From a virus, in IMG/VR virus record IMGVR_UViG_3300037466_001923: 48,809 nucleotides of DNA, one strand, 5' to 3'. The notes beneath the pieces were generated by a model. The model saw nothing but the letters and a program-made list of their open reading frames with translations. It was not told the DNA's origin and did not search any database. Positions 8,464 to 20,003 of this stretch are shown here, piece by piece. Positions within the stretch are counted from its first letter, which is position 1, and each line of letters opens with the position of its first letter. Position numbers and translations under genes: made by a program.

Positions 8464-8832
8464 ATGCAACAAATCCAAATTCCGCCGCTTGCAGAAGGCG
8501 AGATCTACCTCTGCGGCGTCGTCAACGCTGCAGGCGATGTGACGCACACGATCCTGCTTCCCGCTGAAGCCGAGAAGCGCATGAGCTGGCCTGACGCCAT
8601 GGAGTGGGCCAAGGGCCTGAATGCCGATCTGCCGACGCGCGCTGAACTGGTGATGGCCTTCGAGCAGCACCGCAGCCAATTTAAAGAGGCGGCCTACTGG
8701 TCCAACACTCCGGACGCCGATCCCGAATATGCCGGCTGGGTTTGGTGTCAGTCCTTCGGCAACGGCTACCAGAGCTACGACCGGCAGCTCGTCGAGTTGC
8801 GCGCCCGTGCCGTCCGCAGATTGACGATTTAA
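8464..8832 (+). CDS. DGR target protein 1, DUF1566/C-type-lectin-fold type
   Basis: WPDAMEWAKGLNADLPTRAEL...AYWS...GWVWCQSFGNGYQSYDRQLVELRARAVRRL. The C-terminus is VR1. Confidence 0.85.
   Translation: MQQIQIPPLAEGEIYLCGVVNAAGDVTHTILLPAEAEKRMSWPDAMEWAKGLNADLPTRAELVMAFEQHRSQFKEAAYWSNTPDADPEYAGWVWCQSFGNGYQSYDRQLVELRARAVRRLTI
8731..8823 (+). repeat. DGR variable repeat VR1
   Basis: 93-bp ungapped match to the TR. Of 17 differences, 15 are at TR adenines and 2 are non-A at the 5' edge. Confidence 0.8.
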
Positions 8833-8862
8833 CCCTTCATTCATTTTCAGGAGAGGTCAGCA

Positions 8863-9318
8863 ATGACGCCCACGCTTGAAGCAGTTGAAGCAAAGCATGC
8901 CGAGATCACCGCCATGATCGAGGCTATCCGCAAGGCAGCGGCACGCGAATACAAGGTCGCCGGCGGCACGATCCAACTGAACCACGGAGAACAGTACGCC
9001 GGCCTCATTCTCGGCAAAGACGGCGAGCCGGATCATCACCTGATCCTCCTCCCCGGCGATGAAGCTGAACTGAACTGGGACGATGCCAAGAAGTGGGCCA
9101 AGGAACAGGGCGGCGAGTTGCCGACGCGCCGCGAGCAATCGCTCTTGTACGCCAATCTCAAAGATGAGTTCCAGGGCGCCTGGTACTGGTCCGGAGAGGC
9201 TCACCAGCGCGAGTCCGGCTGGGCTTGGTGTCAGTACTTCGGCTACGGCACCCAGAGCCACCTCCGACAGGACACCGAGTTGCGCGCCCGTGCCGTCCGC
9301 AGATTGATCCTTTTGTAA
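8863..9318 (+). CDS. DGR target protein 2, DUF1566/C-type-lectin-fold type (paralogue of 8464..8832)
   Basis: WDDAKKWAKEQGGELPTRREQ...WYWS...GWAWCQYFGYGTQSHLRQDTELRARAVRRL. The C-terminus is VR2. Confidence 0.85.
   Translation: MTPTLEAVEAKHAEITAMIEAIRKAAAREYKVAGGTIQLNHGEQYAGLILGKDGEPDHHLILLPGDEAELNWDDAKKWAKEQGGELPTRREQSLLYANLKDEFQGAWYWSGEAHQRESGWAWCQYFGYGTQSHLRQDTELRARAVRRLILL
9214..9306 (+). repeat. DGR variable repeat VR2
   Basis: 93-bp ungapped match to the TR. All 13 differences are at TR adenines. Confidence 0.9.
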
Positions 9319-9331
9319 TTTAACAATTACA
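9314..9331 (+). other. Hairpin TGTAATT-TAAC-AATTACA just downstream of VR2
   Basis: Perfect 7-bp inverted repeat with a 4-nt loop, 7 nt after the VR2 end. Confidence 0.55.
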
Positions 9332-9337
9332 TCCACC

Positions 9338-9712
9338 GTGGCACTGCACACAAACCTTCCGATCTACAAGGCGGCCTATGGGTTGCTGGACGTGGTGACG
9401 GACCTGGTCAAGAACATGGCTCGCGACTTCAAGCGGAGCATCGGCGAGAAGATCAGCGCGGAATGCATCGAGATCATGGTGCTGGTCTTCCGCGCCAATG
9501 TCGCAGCCGACAAGGCGCCGCACCTGGGCGAACTTATCGAACGCCTTCAGGTGATCGAGCTGCTTTTGCGCCTTGGCATGGACAAGCGCCTGATCTCGCG
9601 GCCAGCTTATGCCAAAGCCGTCGAGATTACGACCAGCATCGGAAAGCAGGCCAATGGCTGGAAGAAGTCCGCAAATCGCCCGCTTCATGGAGGTCAAGGC
9701 CGTCATGACTGA
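9338..9712 (+). CDS. avd: Accessory variability determinant (Avd-like four-helix-bundle protein)
   Basis: 124-aa helical protein between target and TR. NLPIYKAAYGLLDVVTDLVKNMARDFK... GTG start. Confidence 0.7.
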   Translation: MALHTNLPIYKAAYGLLDVVTDLVKNMARDFKRSIGEKISAECIEIMVLVFRANVAADKAPHLGELIERLQVIELLLRLGMDKRLISRPAYAKAVEITTSIGKQANGWKKSANRPLHGGQGRHD

Positions 9713-9853
9713 GCGATCTTTCAATCTGGTCGTGCCGCTGGCCCACAAGGCCACCGCCATGCGCGTAACGGAAACCGACCGCCGGTGTGCGGCGCGGTCC
9801 AGCGCAGTTTCCCTCCTGAGCAATCGGCCGGGCGACGTAGATAGCACGACATA

Positions 9854-9946
9854 TCCGGCTGGGCTTGGTATCAGAACTTCAACAACGGCAACCAGAACAA
9901 CAACCAACAGAACAACGAGTTGCGCGCCCGTGCCGTCCGCAGATTG
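9854..9946 (+). repeat. DGR template repeat (TR)
   Basis: AAC-rich; in the VR frame it reads WAWYQNFNNGNQNNNQQNNELRARAVRRL. An in-frame TAG lies immediately upstream, so it is non-coding in that frame. Confidence 0.9.
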
Positions 9947-11066
9947 GAAATCGAATGCCGCGTTCTCGTTCGCCGAGCTGGTCGAAGCCTATTTCGACTG
10001 CCGGCGGACGAAGCGCAACAGCGCGAGCGCCCTAGCGTTCGAAATCGATATGGAGAACAACCTGCGTCGCCTGTTCGACGAGCTGCTCAACGGAAGCTAT
10101 ATGCCCGGGCGCTCGAAGTGCTTTGTCATCGACCGTCCGAAGCATCGCGAAGTATGGGCAGCAGAGTTTCGCGATCGCATCGTGCACCACCTGCTTTACA
10201 ACCGCATCGGCCCGCGCTTCGAGCGATCGTTCATTGCTGACTCGTGTGCATGTATCAAGGGACGCGGCACGCTTTACGCCGCTCAGCGCCTGGAAGACAA
10301 GGTGCGGTCAATCACACAGAACTGGGCACGCCCGGCGCACTACCTCAAGTGCGATCTGGCCAACTTCTTCGTCAGCATCGACAAGCGTGTCCTGCTTGAT
10401 CTTCTGCACGCAAGGATTCCAGAACCGTTCTGGCGTGATCTGACCGAAATCGTGCTGATGCACGATCCCCGGGACGACTTCGTCTACCTGGGAGATCCGG
10501 CGATGATCAATCGCGTCCCGCCCCACAAACGCCTGATTAAGCAACCGGCACACCTGGGCCTACCAATCGGCAACCTGTCTTCACAGTTCTTTGCCAACGT
10601 CTATCTCAACGAGTTGGATCAGTTCGTGAAGCACGAGCTGCGCTGCCGTCATTACATCCGCTACGTGGATGACTTTGTGTTGCTGCACGAATCACCGCAA
10701 TGGCTTAACGACGCCCACGCTGCCATCGCAGCCTTTTTGCCGGCACGCCTTCACGCGCGCCTCAACCCCAACAAGACCATCCTGCAGCCGGTTGCCCGTG
10801 GCATCGACTTCGTCGGCCAGGTGATTCGGCCGTGGGTTCGGCACACCCGCAAGCGGACGCTGCATAGCGGCATCCAGCGCGTTCGCGAGATACCGGCTGC
10901 AGACGTCTACCAGGTCACGAACAGCTACTTTGGCCTGCTGCGTCAGGCCACCGGAAGCCATGCCGAGCGGGCAAAGCTCGCCAACGTCGCCCTTCAACGT
11001 GGGCATGCGGTAAATCGCCAGCTCACAAAGATCTATCGCAGCTCCCTACACGGAGAGGAATCCTGA
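9930..11066 (+). CDS. DGR reverse transcriptase
   Basis: PIGNLSSQFFANVYLNELD (the DGR-type SQ motif) and YIRYVDDFVLL. Start uncertain: GTG 9930 lies inside the TR, or ATG 9705 overlaps the avd stop. The ORF track gives 9609..11066. Confidence 0.9.
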   Translation: MPSADWKSNAAFSFAELVEAYFDCRRTKRNSASALAFEIDMENNLRRLFDELLNGSYMPGRSKCFVIDRPKHREVWAAEFRDRIVHHLLYNRIGPRFERSFIADSCACIKGRGTLYAAQRLEDKVRSITQNWARPAHYLKCDLANFFVSIDKRVLLDLLHARIPEPFWRDLTEIVLMHDPRDDFVYLGDPAMINRVPPHKRLIKQPAHLGLPIGNLSSQFFANVYLNELDQFVKHELRCRHYIRYVDDFVLLHESPQWLNDAHAAIAAFLPARLHARLNPNKTILQPVARGIDFVGQVIRPWVRHTRKRTLHSGIQRVREIPAADVYQVTNSYFGLLRQATGSHAERAKLANVALQRGHAVNRQLTKIYRSSLHGEES

Positions 11067-11725
11067 TGTTGACTCACCAACTTCAAGGCGCCTTTGAGGA
11101 TGCCTACGAAAAAGCAGCCGCATCCAGCAAACCCGATGATTGGATGAATGCCGCCCTCATGGGCAAGCAGTTCTCCAATGCATATCGCGAGGCGTCACGG
11201 TATCCGGCAGCGTATCAATACCTTTTCACGTCGCCGATCGGTGGCGGCGACGTTTGGCGTCCAGATTCATCCTATTGGAACGGTCAACGCCCGAAGGCCT
11301 CTCGCGCCCTTTTCTCGGTTCCCGTTTCCCGGCCAAATCAGGATCCCGCAAATCTTGAGGGGTTGGCGAAAGCGCTGTTGGCTCCTCGTGAAATCGTCCG
11401 TGATGCAGATGGCTGGCTAGATCACCCAGCATTGCCGGTATGCGATGAAAGCGTGCGCTTTGACGAACTGCTTAGCGCCTTTGGGATGGAAACCTATTTC
11501 CGCGCCATGGATGGCGACGTGAGCCCGGAAGAGTATGACCGCTACTATGACGAACAAGGCGGTTGTGCTGGCTGGACGCCTGCGCCTCCCGACGGCGATG
11601 GCTGGCGCTTGCTGGCTGTTTATGACACAGAAGACGGGCCAAATGCGATGTTTGCACGTGCGAAGCAGCCCGAGCCCCGCAAGCGCTATGCGCAAGATGC
11701 TCAGAAGCAAGGGGGCGCGCGATGA
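11066..11725 (+). CDS. Hypothetical protein, coupled to both the RT (TGATG) and the methyltransferase (ATGA)
   Basis: 219-aa ORF; no family recognised. Confidence 0.6.
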   Translation: MLTHQLQGAFEDAYEKAAASSKPDDWMNAALMGKQFSNAYREASRYPAAYQYLFTSPIGGGDVWRPDSSYWNGQRPKASRALFSVPVSRPNQDPANLEGLAKALLAPREIVRDADGWLDHPALPVCDESVRFDELLSAFGMETYFRAMDGDVSPEEYDRYYDEQGGCAGWTPAPPDGDGWRLLAVYDTEDGPNAMFARAKQPEPRKRYAQDAQKQGGAR

Positions 11726-13512
11726 TCCGCGACCAGTTCCTGCTCGACATCCAAGAAGAGCTGATCGTCGACAACTTCGCTGGCGGCGGTGGCGCGAGCT
11801 GCGGCATTGAGCTGGCGCTCGGGCGTCACGTAGACCATGCGATCAACCATGACCCCGAGGCCGTGGCTATGCACGCCATGAACCATCCGCAGACTGAACA
11901 TCACTGCGAATCGGTGTGGGACGTTAAGCCTCTGGAGTTGACCGGCGGGCGCCCGGTCGGACTCGCGTGGTTTTCGCCCGACTGCAAGCACTTCAGCAAA
12001 GCCAAGGGCGGTAAGCCGCGCGACAAGAAAATCCGAGGTCTTGCCTGGGTGGCAATGCGCTGGGCAGCTGTGGTGCGTCCGCGCGTCATCATCCTGGAGA
12101 ACGTCGAAGAGTTTCAGACCTGGGGGCCGGTGCTCACTGATGGCACGCCGTGCCCGAAGCGCAAGGGCGACACCTTCCGCTCTTTCGTGCGCCAACTGCG
12201 GGAAAAGGGCTATGCGGTCGAATGGCGAGAGTTGCGCGCGTGTGATTACGGCGCGCCGACCATCCGCAAGCGCCTGTTCCTGATCGCTCGGTGTGACGGA
12301 AAGGCGATAGCCTGGCCGGAGCCTACGCACGGCGCACCTAATAGCGCTGGCGTGCTGGCAAAGCGCCTGAAGCCGTGGCGCACGGCGGCCGAGTGCATCG
12401 ACTGGTCGATTCTTCCGCAGTCCATCTTCGAGCGCGACCGCCCATTGGCGGACGCCACGCTGCGTCGAATCGCGCGTGGCATCCGGCGCTATGTCATCGA
12501 TTCAGCCGATCCGTTCATTGTGAAGGTGAACCACGTCGGCGATGGCTTCCGTGGCCAGCGCACGACCGAGCCAGTGCAAACCTTGACGGCGAAGCATGGT
12601 TTTGGCCTTGTTGCTCCGGTGCTGACCGAGTGCGCCAACGCTTCCACCCAGCGAAACTTCCAGGCCGGAGAGCCGCTGCGCACCCAATGCGCCGAGGTCA
12701 AAGGCGGGCATTTCGCTCTGGCTGCCGCAACGCTTGTGCAAACCGGTTACGGCGAGCGGCCAGGACAAGCACCGCGTGCGCCCGGCTTGGACAAACCGCT
12801 GGGCACGGCCATGGCTGGCGGCGTAAAACATGCACTAGTGTCGGCTTTCCTTGCAAAGCACTACGGGGGAAATTATGACGGGCCTGGCGTTGGCTTGCCT
12901 GAGCCGGCCAGCACGATTACGACCACCGATCACCACGCACTGGTTTCCGCGCAACTGGTAGGGTGTGGTGGCCGCGCTGGCCAGAGCCGCCCGCGAGACG
13001 CTAGCGAGCCTGCACAGACGCTCACCGCAAAAGCGGACACGTGCGTCGTCACCTCCAATCTGGTCAAGTTGCGCGGCGAATGCACCGGCAGCAAGACCGA
13101 CGAGCCCGTGCCGACGATTTCGGCGCAAGGTAACCACATCGGCGAGGTCCGGGCCTTCCTGGTCAAGTACTACAGCGAGGGCGGCCAGGATCAGGATTGC
13201 CGCGATCCGATGCACACCATCCCGACGAAAGATCGACTCGGCTTGGTGACGGTCGCGGGCCAGGAATACCAGATCGCCGACATTGGCATGCGCATGCTGG
13301 AGCCGCACGAGCTGTACGCCGCCCAGGGGTTTCCTAGCAGCTACGTCATCGCTCCAGTCATAAACGGCCGCCGGCTCCCCAAGCATGCTCAGGTGCGCAT
13401 GTGCGGCAACAGTGTCAGTCCGCCGCTGGCCGCAGCCCTGGTGCGCGCGAATGTGCCGGAGATGGCCAGTTGGTCCGCGCGCGAGGCTAAATCAATAGGG
13501 GTGGCAGCATGA
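11722..13512 (+). CDS. DNA (cytosine-5)-methyltransferase
   Basis: Motif I DNFAGGGG, IV SPDCKHFS, VI ENVEEF, VIII RKRLFLIA, X GNSVSPPLAAALV. Confidence 0.9.
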   Translation: MIRDQFLLDIQEELIVDNFAGGGGASCGIELALGRHVDHAINHDPEAVAMHAMNHPQTEHHCESVWDVKPLELTGGRPVGLAWFSPDCKHFSKAKGGKPRDKKIRGLAWVAMRWAAVVRPRVIILENVEEFQTWGPVLTDGTPCPKRKGDTFRSFVRQLREKGYAVEWRELRACDYGAPTIRKRLFLIARCDGKAIAWPEPTHGAPNSAGVLAKRLKPWRTAAECIDWSILPQSIFERDRPLADATLRRIARGIRRYVIDSADPFIVKVNHVGDGFRGQRTTEPVQTLTAKHGFGLVAPVLTECANASTQRNFQAGEPLRTQCAEVKGGHFALAAATLVQTGYGERPGQAPRAPGLDKPLGTAMAGGVKHALVSAFLAKHYGGNYDGPGVGLPEPASTITTTDHHALVSAQLVGCGGRAGQSRPRDASEPAQTLTAKADTCVVTSNLVKLRGECTGSKTDEPVPTISAQGNHIGEVRAFLVKYYSEGGQDQDCRDPMHTIPTKDRLGLVTVAGQEYQIADIGMRMLEPHELYAAQGFPSSYVIAPVINGRRLPKHAQVRMCGNSVSPPLAAALVRANVPEMASWSAREAKSIGVAA

Positions 13513-14596: not shown

Positions 14597-15147
14597 TGCA
14601 AATCCATATCACGCGCGTGCCGAGTCGGCCCAAACCCACTGTTGGCGACCGAAAGATGATCGGAGGCGTTGAGCACGTGCGCGTCTTGGAGCGGGTAAAG
14701 AGCGGCCCGCATAAAGGTGCGTATGTCGTCAGGGGAATCCGCTCTTGTTTCGAATGGGTTCCGGTGAACGAAGCTCCCGAGCATCTGCAGAAAATGGCTG
14801 GACGCTGGATCGGTAAACAACGTCCCGCGCAGCAGCCGCCAGAACTTGCCTCCGATGATCTGCGAAAGCTGCAGCACATGCTGGGGGCCACACCCGGGCA
14901 CTACCCAAAAACGAAATGGGGGTGGCGCAACTACTACGCGACAACTGGCGGCCCCGCGATGGAGGCAATGAAGCGCATGGAGGCACAAGGGCTCGTAAAG
15001 CTTGGGCATACCAGCAATGACGGCATGGCGTACTACCACGCCACTGAGGTAGGTTGCCGCGCCGCCGGCTTGGCAGGAAAGCAGATCAAACGTGCCCTGG
15101 GAGATAACGGCTCTCCGGAATATCATGTGGAAGGCTGTGAACCATGA
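14596..15147 (+). CDS. Hypothetical protein with a 3' end altered by IS insertion (native stop would follow codon AAC at 15106-15108)
   Basis: The last 12 residues, GSPEYHVEGCEP, are encoded by the IS inverted repeat. Removing 15109-17386 restores ...ALGDN-TGA overlapping the next ATG. Confidence 0.6.
   Translation: MQIHITRVPSRPKPTVGDRKMIGGVEHVRVLERVKSGPHKGAYVVRGIRSCFEWVPVNEAPEHLQKMAGRWIGKQRPAQQPPELASDDLRKLQHMLGATPGHYPKTKWGWRNYYATTGGPAMEAMKRMEAQGLVKLGHTSNDGMAYYHATEVGCRAAGLAGKQIKRALGDNGSPEYHVEGCEP
15101..15108. repeat. 8-bp target-site duplication GAGATAAC (left)
   Basis: Identical octamer at 17379-17386, abutting the other IR. Confidence 0.85.
15109..15132. repeat. IS terminal inverted repeat (transposase-distal end)
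   Basis: Starts GGCTCT. The transposase stop codon lies inside it. Confidence 0.8.
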
Positions 15148-16571
15148 CTAGCTCGCCCCGTGTGGAATCGTCGATAGCAGGTCGAGCAGATATGCACCCG
15201 TTTCGGGTAGGCGCGACGGTTTGCTTCGCGGCGAACTTCATCCTTCGTGATGGGCGGCAATGTGTGTGTTTCCAACTCATCGGCATCGAACACGCCATTG
15301 CACGACCCGCAGCGGCTACCGAGCGCTTCAACAAGCGCGACTTGCCTTTCGACTTGGTCAGCAGTTCGTTTCTTCATGTGGCCCTCCGCTGGCTCCTTCT
15401 TGTGCAGCTTTCCGTACAGCAGCCGTGCGCGCAGCACCTCGAAGCTGTAGCCGCGGCCGGAGCGGTTGATGACCTTTGCGACCCCGTTCAGGGCTTCCGT
15501 GTAGCCGTTCGAAATCGGGTGGTCGAAGTAGGCGAGCATCTCCTCGCGCCAGTTCCGGGTGGAAGTGAGCAACGGCAGGAAGCTCTTCTTGCCCTTCTTC
15601 ATGGCGGCTGGAACGGACTTGCGCCATTCGTCCAGACGCTCAGAGGCTGCAGCCTTGTCGGGCGCGTCGTAGATGTCGTAGAACGCTTCCTTCAGCCGGT
15701 AGGCGGTCGCCACGTGCGGCTCGTTGTCCAGCCACATCTGGAGGTTGAAGCGGCCCTGTTCGTCGAGGTTCTTGTATCGCATCCGGAGCAACGCTTTGCG
15801 CCGCATCCAGTCACGGCTGACGGCCTTCTCCTGCTCCTTGCCGAGGCTGATTCGAATATCGTCCATGGCGCGGTTCGCCATTCTGACCAAGTGGAACTTG
15901 TCGATAACGACTGGCAGACCAGGGAAGACGGATTGCGCTGCGTCCTTGTACGGTCGCCACATGTCGATGGCGAGGCCCTTGACGCCGCCGCGCTCCTTGA
16001 ACTGATGCAGCCACGCCGTCACCAGCGGCTTGTCGCGGTCGGGCAGCATATCAATAGGAACTCGATTGACCACGTCGGTGATGATGCAGCGGAGCTTGCC
16101 GTCAATCTGCGTCTCGTCGATGCCCAGCCACTCTGGCAGCCAGGGTTTGTATTCCGCGTTCAGGCGGTCGATGTAGTCGCCGGCCAGGGTTCGGACGGTC
16201 TTGTCATCGCAGCCCACATGCTCAGCGATGCGAGTGAAGGTATCTCGCAGGCACTGTTCCTCGATGTACTGCACGCAACGGGCTGTCATGCGCGTGGCGG
16301 GATGGATACCGCCCAATGGCTGGATAAACGTGCCGCCGCACTCTCTGCACCTGAAACGCTGCGCATTGGCCTCAATGCTCACAGGACGGCCCCGAATAGG
16401 GCTATCTCGAAAAATGATCATTTTGGGGCCGTGCTTATAAACGCGGCCAATTACGCCGCATTTTTGGCATGCCTCCGGCAAAACTGTGTAGTCGGCCGAG
16501 ATGATGTAGTGGTCGTCTTCGGTGCGCGTCGCGGTCGGAACCCAGCCGGGGAGGTCGAGAATGTCGGTCAT
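15123..16571 (-). CDS. ISL3-family transposase with a roughly 90-aa C-terminal Cys-rich extension
   Basis: N-terminal zf-ISL3 CQKCG...FRCRECGG. DDE core LGIDETQ...LAIDMWRPY...VIDKFH...NGYTEALNG. Tail has CGSCNG...CSTCYRRFH. Confidence 0.9.
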   Translation of the reverse strand: MTDILDLPGWVPTATRTEDDHYIISADYTVLPEACQKCGVIGRVYKHGPKMIIFRDSPIRGRPVSIEANAQRFRCRECGGTFIQPLGGIHPATRMTARCVQYIEEQCLRDTFTRIAEHVGCDDKTVRTLAGDYIDRLNAEYKPWLPEWLGIDETQIDGKLRCIITDVVNRVPIDMLPDRDKPLVTAWLHQFKERGGVKGLAIDMWRPYKDAAQSVFPGLPVVIDKFHLVRMANRAMDDIRISLGKEQEKAVSRDWMRRKALLRMRYKNLDEQGRFNLQMWLDNEPHVATAYRLKEAFYDIYDAPDKAAASERLDEWRKSVPAAMKKGKKSFLPLLTSTRNWREEMLAYFDHPISNGYTEALNGVAKVINRSGRGYSFEVLRARLLYGKLHKKEPAEGHMKKRTADQVERQVALVEALGSRCGSCNGVFDADELETHTLPPITKDEVRREANRRAYPKRVHICSTCYRRFHTGRASHGSQPST

Positions 16572-17306
16572 TTAGAAGCCGGTCAGCAATTGGTATTGGA
16601 CCGGCATCTTATCAATGCCCGAAAGGAACGACTCCGCCTCGCGCCAGTCGTTGGCATTACGGCCTTGGCGGCGAGCTGCAAACGACCACGCCATCGAATC
16701 GGCCGTATAAAGGCATTCACGCACGAATCCGCTACGGAGCGCCGTGGTCTTCAGGCCGAAGCCGTGCAGGCGAAGGTCCGGGCGACGCATCTTGATAGCG
16801 CAAAGAACCGCCTCAATCGCCTTCGGGTCGCCGTTTCTCTTGCAGACGCTGCCCACGCCAACCCAAGCTCCAGGCGCCAGACGGTCGCCATACATGTCGA
16901 TATGGCGGACATAGTCTTCGGGAGCGAAGCCTTGCAGCACGGGCATGATGTAGACACCACCGGTATCGCAAGCTACCAACGCGTCATATCGCTCAATGGT
17001 CAGTCGCTGATGCTCCGCAACCGACAAGCCTGTCTTCGCCACCATGAACGGCTCGCACATATAGTCCTGCGCCACAGCGCACAAAAGATTGCCATTAGTC
17101 GCCCAGCGGCGGATTTGAGCGGCGTACACACTCGGCTCTTCTGGATAGCCGCCGTGAGTAAGGATGGTCGTGAACGCCCCCGAGTCCATCATCCAATCGC
17201 CGACGGCGAAGGGGCTCACGCGCTTCTTCAAGCGGTTCACCGAAATCATTGCCGCCTCGAAGTTCTTGGCATCCGACGGCTGATGCAAACCGATAAAGAA
17301 TCGCAT
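16572..17306 (-). CDS. dpdA: TGT-like DNA transglycosylase (DpdA-like, 7-deazaguanine DNA modification), tentative
   Basis: MRFFIGLHQP...ISVNRL...WMMDSGAF...AQDYMCEP...MPVLQGF...VGVGSVCKR...LHGFGLK...ADSMAWS. Motif order matches my recollection of DpdA/TGT-family proteins. TAAATG junction with the transposase. Confidence 0.5.
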   Translation of the reverse strand: MRFFIGLHQPSDAKNFEAAMISVNRLKKRVSPFAVGDWMMDSGAFTTILTHGGYPEEPSVYAAQIRRWATNGNLLCAVAQDYMCEPFMVAKTGLSVAEHQRLTIERYDALVACDTGGVYIMPVLQGFAPEDYVRHIDMYGDRLAPGAWVGVGSVCKRNGDPKAIEAVLCAIKMRRPDLRLHGFGLKTTALRSGFVRECLYTADSMAWSFAARRQGRNANDWREAESFLSGIDKMPVQYQLLTGF

Positions 17307-17354
17307 TTATTCCACACGTTTTTCCGTTTTCTTAACTTATCATGGAATCATGGA

Positions 17355-17378
17355 TTACACACGTTATTCCGCAGAGCC
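17355..17378. repeat. IS terminal inverted repeat (passenger-gene end)
   Basis: Reverse complement starts GGCTCT. A 17-bp inner direct copy sits at 17310-17326. Confidence 0.8.
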
Positions 17379-17386
17379 GAGATAAC
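17379..17386. repeat. 8-bp target-site duplication GAGATAAC (right)
   Basis: Identical to 15101-15108. Confidence 0.85.
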
Positions 17387-17388
17387 TG

Positions 17389-17673
17389 ATGGCCGTCTAT
17401 GTCGACGACATGGCCGCCCAGTACGGCCGCATGGTGATGTTCCACATGGTCGCAGACACCGACGACGAGCTGCACGCAATGGCCGACAAGATCGGCGTCG
17501 CGCGACGCTGGCACCAGAAAGCCGGAACGGTGCACAGCCACTACGACATCTGCAAGGCGAAGCGGATGCAAGCTATCGGCCATGGCGCTGTTGAAGTGGA
17601 CCGCCGAGGACTCGCCTCCATCATCAAATCAAAGCGCGCAGCCGCGGCCCTTGGAGAGAGCAAACATGAGTGA
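17389..17673 (+). CDS. DUF4031-like protein
   Basis: MAVYVDD...HMVADTDDELHAMADKIGVARRWHQ...HYDI pattern. Confidence 0.55.
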   Translation: MAVYVDDMAAQYGRMVMFHMVADTDDELHAMADKIGVARRWHQKAGTVHSHYDICKAKRMQAIGHGAVEVDRRGLASIIKSKRAAAALGESKHE

Positions 17674-18037
17674 GCCGACATTGTTGCCGTGCCCGTTCTG
17701 CGGTGGCGAGGCGAATGAACCGAGTTATGACGGCCAGTACATGTCTGCGTCGGTGATTTGCATGGCGTGTGCGGCCACGACTTTCGGAACTGGTTTCAAG
17801 CTCTCCGCCACGGATGAGGCTAGATCAAACTGGAATCAACGCCCTACGTGCGAATGGGCCAAAGATCCAGACGAAGAATACATGCCCGACACGTGGGACA
17901 GCGCTTGTGGTGAGAAGTGGACCTTCAACGAAGGCGGCCCAGTCGAGAACAGCGTGCGCTTCTGCCAAGGTTGCGGCAAGACCGTGAAACTGGCTGCCGC
18001 ACAACCGCCCGCGATGATGGAGCACGATGATGAGTGA
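17666..18037 (+). CDS. Lar-family restriction-alleviation-like protein with a C-terminal extension
   Basis: Start ATG 17666. LLPCPFCGGEA...VICMACAA...DEARSNWNQR matches the Lar pattern CPFCGG...C..C...W..R. Confidence 0.5.
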   Translation: MSEPTLLPCPFCGGEANEPSYDGQYMSASVICMACAATTFGTGFKLSATDEARSNWNQRPTCEWAKDPDEEYMPDTWDSACGEKWTFNEGGPVENSVRFCQGCGKTVKLAAAQPPAMMEHDDE

Positions 18038-18902: not shown

Positions 18903-20003
18903 ATGGGTCGCAAACCGTACCGTAACACCGGTCTTCCGCCAGGGATGCGGAAGCGCGTGCGGCGCACGCGCATCTACTACTACCTGGACACTGGCGAGAA
19001 GCCGAGGCGCGAAATACCACTAGGAAGCGACTATGTGCTGGCAGTGAAAGAGTGGTCACGTCTAAGGGCGTCAAAGACGCCTGCCGCTGGCGAGATCACG
19101 TTCGCCTACGTTGCGCAAAAATACTGGGAGGACGTCATTCCGACCAAGAAGCCGCGGACGCAGAGTGACAATGAGAAGGAGCGAGCAAAGTTGCTGCAAT
19201 TTTTCAATGACCCGCCAGCGCCACTCGACACGATCGAGCCCGTACACGTCAGGCAGTACATGCGCTGGCGCGTGCAGAATGCTCGCGAAGAGGCCCAGAA
19301 GAAAAACGAGCAGCGAATCAAAGAGAAAAAGGCCCCGCTGCCTATACCCGCAAACCTAGGGCAGGTGCGCGCCAACCGGGAGAAAGCGCTTTTCTCCCAC
19401 ATCTGGAACTATGCGCGCTCAGAGGGCTACACGGCCCTACCAAACCCGTGCGCCGGTATCAAAGGCTACGTGGAATCAGGTCGCGATGCGTACGTCGACG
19501 ACGATCTGCTGGCCCGCGCCATGGAGCATGCGGTGTTGCCGCTGCAGTTTGCGCTGCGCCTGGCGCACCTCACCGGCCAGCGGCCGGCGGATGTCTACAA
19601 AATGGCCGAGACGGACATCAAGGATGGGATGCTATTCGTCCGGCAGGGGAAGACGGATGCACCGCTGCGTTTCATGATCGGCGGCGAACTGAAAACGCTT
19701 CTAGACGAGATGCTGGCCTACAAAGCGCAATTCGCCGTGCGATCGCTGGCGCTACTGGTGACGGAATCCGGCCAGCCGATGAAGGCGCACCACATGCGGC
19801 ACCGTTTCGATATGGCCCGCGACAAGGCAGGAATCGCCAAGCATGAATTCCAGTTCCGGGATCTGCGGGCGAAAACGGCGACCGAGGCAGACGACGCAGA
19901 AGGAACGCGACGGGCACAAGCTATACTCGGCCACACCACAGAGACAATGACGACTCACTACATCCGAAAGCGCGCCGGAAAGAAGGTGCGACCACTGCGA
20001 TAA
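18903..20003 (+). CDS. int: Tyrosine integrase
   Basis: LTGQRPADV (Arg), HHMRHRF (H-x-x-R), LGHTTETMTTHYIR (His, Tyr). Confidence 0.9.
   Translation: MGRKPYRNTGLPPGMRKRVRRTRIYYYLDTGEKPRREIPLGSDYVLAVKEWSRLRASKTPAAGEITFAYVAQKYWEDVIPTKKPRTQSDNEKERAKLLQFFNDPPAPLDTIEPVHVRQYMRWRVQNAREEAQKKNEQRIKEKKAPLPIPANLGQVRANREKALFSHIWNYARSEGYTALPNPCAGIKGYVESGRDAYVDDDLLARAMEHAVLPLQFALRLAHLTGQRPADVYKMAETDIKDGMLFVRQGKTDAPLRFMIGGELKTLLDEMLAYKAQFAVRSLALLVTESGQPMKAHHMRHRFDMARDKAGIAKHEFQFRDLRAKTATEADDAEGTRRAQAILGHTTETMTTHYIRKRAGKKVRPLR

Follow-up and report, generated by a model that had tools for sequence, protein, structure and literature searches.

An ISL3-family transporter insertion sequence in a temperate phage genome carries a DpdA-family gene in a cargo slot that varies across its clade

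Within the early operon of the virus genome IMGVR_UViG_3300037466_001923 (IMG/VR; 48,809 nucleotides were analyzed, hereafter called the window), two genes lie where related phages have none, one for a transposase and the other for a 244-aa protein of the DpdA family. This locus raises the question of whether the two genes form a single mobile unit and, if so, what the second might do for a phage that carries it. Our analysis of the sequence indicates that positions 15109-17378 are an intact ISL3-family transporter insertion sequence (IS), i.e., one with a gene unrelated to transposition inside its inverted repeats (IRs). As a whole, we regard it as probable that this is an autonomous transporter IS, organized as an operon with a coupled transposase, whose "singleton" DpdA would partly protect the carrier phage from restriction.

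The element comprises 2,270 bp and is bounded by 24-bp IRs that both begin with GGCTCT and are identical at 20 of 24 positions. The right-end, transposase-distal IR (GGCTCTCCGGAATATCATGTGGAA, 15109-15132, plus strand) is conserved across 18 relatives and pairs with the left-end, cargo-proximal IR (GGCTCTGCGGAATAACGTGTGTAA as the reverse complement, 17355-17378, minus strand). The octamer GAGATAAC abuts the right IR at 15101-15108 and recurs at 17379-17386, as expected of a target-site duplication. These ends and octamers had been described in the initial annotation, which also raised the possibility that their match was fortuitous, and reading of the window bore out both their positions and their identity. 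The octamer occurs just twice in the whole window, a degenerate IR pattern matched these two termini only, and 100 shuffled sequences gave no match. Members of the ISL3 family have IRs of approximately 15-39 bp, usually starting with GGCTCT or GGGTAT, and an 8-bp target duplication. The family identity proposed at first was found in the transposase domains, the GGCTCT IRs and the 8-bp duplication alike, to which copies elsewhere and an empty site can be added.

The transposase is a 482-aa protein encoded at 15123-16571 on the minus strand, with its stop codon falling within the right IR. It is composed of an N-terminal Zn ribbon, a helix-turn-helix region, a DDE domain and a clade-specific C-terminal extension. 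It covers the full Pfam DDE_Tnp_ISL3 profile (positions 1-240 of 240; E = 2.5e-54), Zn_ribbon_ISL3 and HTH_Tnp_ISL3 are also above their cut-offs, and the NCBIfam equivalog transpos_ISL3 scores 296 bits for a cut-off of 180, confirming the zf-ISL3 and DDE features that had been read from the sequence. The extension of approximately 95 aa (residues ~390-482; window 15123-15410) is common to the transposases of the clade, in which it contains four invariant cysteines, C421, C424, C462 and C465. The ISL3 family models leave it uncovered, and it gave a weak Mut7-C match only. The coding sequence of the extension also contains a right-end subterminal repeat (CGTGTGGAAT, 15159-15168, plus strand) approximately 50 nt inside the IR, and 17 of 18 right ends keep GTGTGGAA there.

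The gene for the 244-aa protein, dpdA, is located at 16572-17306 on the minus strand, and its TAA stop codon abuts the ATG of the transposase gene, giving the TAAATG junction noted in the initial annotation. Downstream of each of its closest relatives (98% and 90% aa identity) is a gene for a 482-aa ISL3 transposase. BLASTN comparisons of the element together with 300 nt of flanking sequence yielded alignments running exactly from the first to the last base of the element, with unrelated flanks. Other full dpdA-transposase copies, of 2,270-2,274 bp, have the same ends in different surroundings, namely loci L003-L005 (91.6% nucleotide identity to the window over the whole element) and L013 (87.9%). 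The L013 copy has its own perfect 8-bp duplication, AATAAATC. The L003-L005 copies are situated beside RecT and DUF3799 genes, a phage context, and have intact IRs without a target duplication (L003 184-2453, Logan SRR29078103, as well as L004 and L005; GATTCTTT on the left and AAAAATAC on the right), a sign that two copies may have recombined or that neighboring sequence was deleted. All three independent copies have dpdA in the interval from the left IR to the transposase gene. By these alignments the full dpdA-transposase unit is mobile, and further copies of the element, with dpdA as a passenger, are found in unrelated flanks.

The insertion site is equally well defined. The upstream phage gene (14596-15147, plus strand) is interrupted at its last codon; its native end is ...ALGDN*, and 12 extra residues are read from the end of the IS. 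The downstream gene (17389-17673, plus strand; Pfam DUF4031, E = 3.5e-27) has an ATG that overlapped the upstream stop codon before the insertion. Excision of the element in silico yields ...GGAGATAAC/TGATGG..., the clean stop/start overlap that the initial annotation had predicted. The same arrangement exists naturally in two related phage contigs from IMG/VR, L079 and L080, which were found using the reconstructed upstream protein. The junctions read ...CTGGGAGATGAC/TGATGGCCGTCTAC... in L079 (89% aa identity) and ...TTGGGGGATGAC/TGATGGCC... in L080. Both empty sites (...GAGATGAC/TGATGG...) have a TGATG stop/start overlap with the DUF4031 gene, the upstream homologues end in ...GDD*, and neither contig has dpdA or the transposase gene. 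Their octamer, GAGATGAC, is one base off that of the window, and an exact-pattern search of IMG/VR for the predicted empty site gave no match. Other junctions nearby in the same operon are also overlapped, as had been stated. The target of the insertion was an AT-rich octamer, right where the stop codon of one early-operon gene overlapped the start codon of the next.

Of the description of the insertion as recent and precise, the empty sites bear out the precision. Its age is undatable, the identical insertion being fixed in a lineage across several metagenomes. The exact transposase sequence is present on eight contigs. In the four places listed, which come from four metagenome records, the right flank is identical, and the left flank is the same in the two that reach it; in one of them, L147, the IS is identical to that of the window over 2,270 of 2,270 bases. 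As the identical insertion occurs in at least four independent metagenome records, it is no assembly artifact. On this sequence evidence the insertion is real and fixed in a circulating lineage. When the phage collection was searched with the element by megablast, only the transposase part matched, in phage Bcep22; by this search, no known phage carries the dpdA element.

Could dpdA instead be a resident phage gene beside which an IS landed, with a fortuitous match of IRs and duplication? Its close relatives at 80-85% identity (85% for P0003, 80-83% for the others) would fit this explanation, being ordinary stand-alone genes of phage early regions without a transposase gene, with ERF, NinB, D5 primase and an Acb2/Tad1-like gene among their neighbors. 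However, homology across dpdA and the transposase gene stops right at the two IRs, beyond which the flanks are unrelated, the empty sites of L079 and L080 lack both genes, and the window has no further match to the IR pattern or the octamer. A resident dpdA is refuted by these observations. Because the close relatives are ordinary stand-alone phage genes, the cargo must have been taken from a phage gene pool. One of them (83% identity; L084 730-1992, ENA ERZ19037073) is located directly downstream of a gene for an Acb2/Tad1 hairpin-domain protein. Acb2/Tad1 is a family of anti-CBASS/anti-Thoeris sponges. The L084 neighborhood suggests that DpdA proteins of this type normally belong to counter-defense gene clusters of phages.

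The independent copies also inform on selection. Among them, dN/dS is 0.03-0.06 for dpdA and 0.06-0.09 for the transposase gene; from these ratios, both genes are maintained under purifying selection. The two genes have diverged discordantly: between the window and L013, dS is 1.25 for dpdA and 0.38 for the transposase gene, and between the window and L003 the values are 0.21 and 0.46, respectively. This discordance points to exchange of cargo modules between backbones.

We then considered the nature of the cargo protein. It matches the Pfam DpdA family PF23859 with E = 1.7e-45 and 155.7 bits for a cut-off of 27, its residues 3-214 aligning with profile positions 5-224 of 291, and it matches PHROG 1279, "queuine tRNA-ribosyltransferase", with E = 1.5e-70. 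It had no match in NCBIfam. Of the two profile checks proposed in the initial annotation, that against DpdA was thus positive and that against the canonical tRNA-guanine transglycosylase (TGT) family, PF01702, gave no match at E ≤ 0.1. An AlphaFold2 model built on 35 homologues has a pLDDT of 93.4 and a pTM of 0.90. The top Foldseek matches of this model in the PDB are a TGT (7a3x, E = 6e-6) and a DpdA (7ui4, E = 2e-5), with TM scores of about 0.6, and among viral proteins the closest structure is that of a mycobacteriophage "queuine tRNA-ribosyltransferase" (39% identity, TM 0.84). The resemblance to TGT and DpdA proteins that had been suggested from motif order is therefore upheld by profile, model and structural matches, and the protein is a DpdA-family member with a predicted TGT-like (beta/alpha)8 barrel. 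Three motifs, DSGAF (D41), QD (D81) and ADSM (D203), are invariant across the 35 homologues. In TGT, Asp102 and Asp280 are catalytic and Asp156 binds the substrate.

No QueC, QueD, QueE or FolE domain was found among the 34 non-structural open reading frames (ORFs) of the window. Genes for the synthesis of preQ0 (7-cyano-7-deazaguanine) or G+ are typical beside DpdA in well-characterized phage systems, without being obligatory. As the window has no que genes, any 7-deazaguanine precursor must come from the host, and its dpdA is, by gene content, a singleton. A host-supplied precursor has been proposed for 76 phages with singleton DpdAs, the third group described by Hutinet et al. in 2019, which includes Mycobacterium phage Orion and Salmonella phage 7-11 (PMC6884629). 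The window dpdA resembles those of this group in the lack of preQ0 genes and in the presumed host origin of the precursor, and it differs from them in that it resides within a transposable element and is presumably cotranscribed with a transposase gene. In the mechanism that we propose, DpdA would replace guanines of the DNA by host-made preQ0 or a derivative, and the modified DNA would give the carrier phage partial protection against restriction. Such protection would in turn cause the IS to be tolerated or stabilized in the phage genome.

The operon organization that we propose is based on a comparison of left ends, those of 30 elements aligning without gaps over 69 nt. The common layout consists of the IR at nt 1-24, a TATAnT box at nt 40-45 and, at nt 53-69, the core of the IR once more as an inner repeat, CGGAATAACGTGTGGAA. 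In the window, the corresponding features are the -10-like hexamer TAAGTT (17334-17339, minus strand), which is TATAAT or TATACT in most relatives, and the inner, subterminal repeat CGGAAAAACGTGTGGAA (17310-17326, minus strand), just upstream of the dpdA start. In the 30 elements, the A at position 2 and the T at position 6 of the box are invariant, as are C53, G54, G55, T63, G64 and T65 of the inner repeat. After the inner repeat there is usually an AGGA, and the ATG of the cargo gene comes next, near nt 73-97. Homology between close relatives stops right after the inner repeat and restarts at the transposase start codon, and across the clade the cargo stop codon abuts or overlaps that start codon (TAA/ATG, GTGA, ATGA). 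The -10 proposal is based on conservation in the 30 elements and not on a promoter scan.

These features are consistent with roles of the left end as promoter and operator, and with translational coupling. The left end of approximately 70 nt, with its IR, -10-like box and inner IR-core copy, would drive the cargo ORF and make the element a single operon. The inner repeat may be an operator or a further site of transposase binding; as an operator overlapping the start region of the promoter, it would let the transposase regulate its own expression. The cargo would be translated first, and coupling of transposase synthesis to cargo translation is probable, given that the cargo gene ends right where the transposase gene starts.

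Several observations weigh against this reading of the element. The -10-like box of the window itself is weak, and a simple sigma-70 scan found no promoter on the coding strand of the element in the left end. The cargo protein is short, approximately 130 aa shorter than TGT, and covers only positions 5-224 of the 291 of PF23859; direct reading of its sequence revealed no CxCxxC zinc motif, which in canonical TGT is part of a zinc-binding subdomain (CxCxxC...H) at the C terminus. D41, D81 and D203 may be the equivalents of the TGT aspartates, a tentative mapping that follows motif order only. PDB sequence searches with the single protein or with the 35-sequence profile gave no meaningful match, and an hhalign comparison of that profile with Escherichia coli TGT yielded no significant alignment. 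The substrate and activity of this DpdA are likewise predictions from sequence and model. Hutinet et al. consider the modification status of singleton-DpdA phages hard to predict: phage Orion has no 7-deazaguanine and phage 7-11 only ~0.02% 2'-deoxy-7-amido-7-deazaguanosine (dADG) (PMC6884629).

These points bring up the alternative of a diverged cargo protein that has the TGT fold without inserting preQ0 into DNA; it might instead act on another substrate or on tRNA, or require a missing partner, and would have been selected for some other benefit to phage or host. The size of the protein, the absence of a visible zinc motif and of que genes, and catalytic residues that neither PDB searches nor hhalign could map would agree with it, as would the separate clustering of singleton DpdAs, which their authors consider possibly functionally diverged, and the unmodified DNA of Orion (PMC6884629). 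In contrast, the match to the Pfam DpdA family is far above threshold, the best solved structures are TGT and DpdA, and the DSG, QD and DSM motifs are invariant in the 35 homologues, with strong purifying selection. The lack of modification in Orion has been attributed to a host without preQ0 synthesis (PMC6884629), a lack that would not be expected in a proteobacterial host. We consider a diverged function unlikely, and retain it as the most serious competitor to a DNA-modifying DpdA that protects the phage.

Is dpdA an isolated case, or does the position between left end and transposase gene regularly hold such genes? The clade was surveyed by protein-guided scans of a collection of contigs with one genome per species and of IMG/VR, followed by ungapped scoring of 24-mer IRs. 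Loci L100, L103, L104, L110, L116, L117, L119, L134 and L135 were left out as unresolved or probably mispaired. This resolved 44 elements of 1,758-3,040 bp, 32 of which have perfect 8-bp duplications that are mostly AT-rich. Cargo classes were assigned by Pfam and PHROG scans, plus the record annotation for ISRso21. DNA methylases of the N6/N4 type are the cargo in Ralstonia insidiosa plasmid pB1903, L114 and L137, those of the C5 type in L075 and L112, and those of PHROG 954 or 757 in L113 and L136, and an annotated S-adenosylmethionine (SAM) methylase is present in ISRso21. TGT/DpdA-like cargo is found in the window, L003 and L013 (PF23859) and in L123 and L129 (PHROG 887; L123 was scanned, and L129 was assigned by its near-identical translation). 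PAPS-reductase-like proteins of PHROG 424 are encoded in L126 and L131, a Lar restriction alleviation protein in L069 and a NADAR protein in L070. In total, 17 of the 44 elements have cargo annotated for DNA modification or counter-defense. The remaining cargos are small proteins without assigned function, several of them in phage protein families.

The element of pB1903 has GGCTCT IRs, the methylase gene in the cargo position and the perfect duplication GAAGATAG, and in megablast both it and Bcep22 matched the window element over query positions 1-1463 only, a stretch with the transposase gene and the right end, at 88-89% nucleotide identity. This plasmid (CP093307.1, 91 kb) has three matches to the element. 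Its segment 27297-36759 (L002, ~9.5 kb) contains three ISL3 transposase genes, one of them cut at the locus end, including two complete N6/N4 methylase-transposase copies in opposite orientation about 900 bp apart. L123 (688-3108) and L129 (1947-4370), both from IMG/VR, are distant ISL3 relatives with ~50% transposase identity; their cargo consists of an 84-aa ORF and a 241-aa "queuine tRNA-ribosyltransferase" of a second family (PHROG 887, E = 2e-70). In hhalign, the PHROG 887 cargo of L123 had no significant alignment and no detectable sequence similarity to the window DpdA, which suggests at least two separate captures of TGT-like cargo. In ISL3 elements that are still further removed, with GGGTAT IRs, a stretch of 700-2,100 bp likewise precedes the transposase gene.

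In a single-protein search, 19 of 20 viral matches were clade members (≥50% identity), compared with about 7 of 39 in the species-genome collection, mostly fragments, which suggests that the clade is enriched in phages. We propose, as a possibility slightly less likely than not, that this mostly phage-resident ISL3 clade is a mobile expression cassette into whose slot accessory genes are swapped, preferentially those for DNA modification or anti-defense. In such a cassette, the left end with its promoter, operator and Shine-Dalgarno (SD) sequence and the coupled transposase gene would flank a slot receiving repeatedly exchanged phage accessory genes. Two facts count against its breadth. With 27 of the 44 cargo sets lacking a recognizable function, the generalization to anti-restriction cargo rests on the annotated minority, and the clade is not confined to phages, as pB1903 is a plasmid and ISRso21 is on a megaplasmid.

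The slot might alternatively serve transposition itself, by delivering ribosomes to the coupled start codon or by regulation through DNA marking, in which case DpdA would be incidental or regulatory. Dam marking of DNA regulates IS10 transposition, and many cargos of the clade are DNA-modifying enzymes. No member without cargo is present among the 44 elements, the smallest of which has 1,758 bp, and the transposase ORF begins directly at the end of the cargo ORF or overlaps it, in most cases with no SD sequence of its own. Against a role in transposition, the cargos belong to unrelated families (methylases, TGT-like, Lar and NADAR proteins, and small proteins without assignment), each of them a typical phage accessory family with PHROG relatives outside IS elements. 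Moreover, strong purifying selection acts on the amino acids encoded by dpdA, for which an ORF that merely delivers ribosomes would have no need. We judge this alternative improbable, and the less likely of the two that concern the function of the cargo.

Two elements in known replicons are close counterparts. The ISL3 element ISRso21 of Ralstonia solanacearum, named in RefSeq, has a transposase core with 82% nucleotide identity to that of the window and shares its left-end layout, in which the IR is followed by a TACAAT box and the inner repeat CGGAATAACGTGTGGAA, and the ATG of the cargo gene is near nt 81. Its 8-bp duplication is GGAATAGT, and its cargo ORF overlaps the transposase start. 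It differs from the window element in its size of 2,032 bp, its cargo, a 165-aa class I SAM methyltransferase, and its non-phage location between trpC and pdxH on a megaplasmid. The Bcep22 element (gp32-gp34, annotated with a "putative insertion sequence boundary") is resident in a Burkholderia phage, has the same GGCTCT IRs and a perfect 8-bp duplication, GTTCTTCT, and is 88.5% identical in its transposase and right end. In contrast to the window element, it has 2,158 bp and contains two short ORFs of 71 and 124 aa, both hypothetical and in PHROGs without a known function, and homology between the two ends exactly at the transposase ATG.

Passengers as such are not unusual for ISL3 elements, contrary to what the initial annotation had said of IS elements, ISRso21 being one example and ISPst2 another; what stands is the novelty of DpdA as cargo. 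ISPst2 is an ISL3 transporter IS with passenger genes inside its IRs and 8-bp duplications (PMC6305408). Elements of the ISPst2 type differ in having regulator and permease passengers for metal or stress functions, other IRs and transposases that are only ~35-40% identical, and they have been described neither in association with phages nor with cargo for DNA modification. The bacterial Dpd system combines modification by DpdA, DpdB and DpdC with restriction by DpdD-K, and 7ui4 is the structure of its DpdA. That protein shares the TGT-like fold with the window protein (Foldseek E = 2e-5, probability 1.0), but it has 413 aa compared with 244 aa and is only 12% identical. Unlike the bacterial system, the window encodes no DpdB ATPase and no restriction genes, and whereas Dpd is a host defense, the window DpdA is a candidate for counter-defense of a phage or IS. 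We found no description of an IS-borne DpdA in the literature searched, many subscription papers being beyond the reach of that search, nor any of a clade-wide, precisely delimited cargo slot with abundant DNA-modification genes in phage ISL3 elements. Passengers of ISL3 elements and singleton DpdAs of phages are known separately; the novelty lies in DpdA as cargo and in the clade-wide pattern.

The genome that carries the element is, from its gene content, a temperate, myovirus-like phage or prophage. Its genes include those for an integrase (18903-20003), an S24 repressor, a terminase, a portal protein, a sheath, a tape measure and a baseplate. It has a GC content of 60% and no close phage in GenBank, and a megablast with the 22.5-kb structural region gave as the sole match 318 bp within a tail gene from a Burkholderia phage. 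Its host is probably a GC-rich bacterium, loosely placed in the Burkholderiales. The IS is antisense to the early operon that it interrupts. This operon also encodes a 596-aa C5 cytosine DNA methylase (11722-13512) and a Lar-like restriction-alleviation protein (17582-18037), and the IS-borne DpdA is the third putative anti-restriction function within 6 kb. Further upstream, the region 8580-11066 resembles a diversity-generating retroelement. A 93-nt repeat is present there three times, as variable repeats at 8732-8824 and 9215-9307, each at the 3' end of one of two paralogous ORFs on the plus strand, and as an A-rich template repeat at 9855-9947. The differences are at template adenines, and the template repeat is followed by a reverse transcriptase gene (Pfam RVT_1).

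IS elements are reported to be rare in wild-type phage genomes, owing to their disturbance of gene expression (PMC3091744). The element described here carries a gene that may pay for its own presence in a phage. If its DpdA is active, a single transposition event would let a phage hypermodify its DNA using only preQ0 of the host, and a new route would exist for the spread of 7-deazaguanine modification. The conserved left end followed by a variable cargo provides a simple, searchable signature with which phages and plasmids could be mined for small genes with a likely role in counter-defense, in parallel with the mining of defense islands for defense systems, and the clade is a tractable model for the capture and exchange of single passengers by an IS with precise boundaries. 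Should the clade indeed be a mobile expression cassette, its elements would spread counter-defense genes horizontally between phages and plasmids, their unannotated cargos would be candidates for new anti-defense genes, and the persistence of these IS elements in phage genomes, despite their rarity and the harm they cause there, would be explained.

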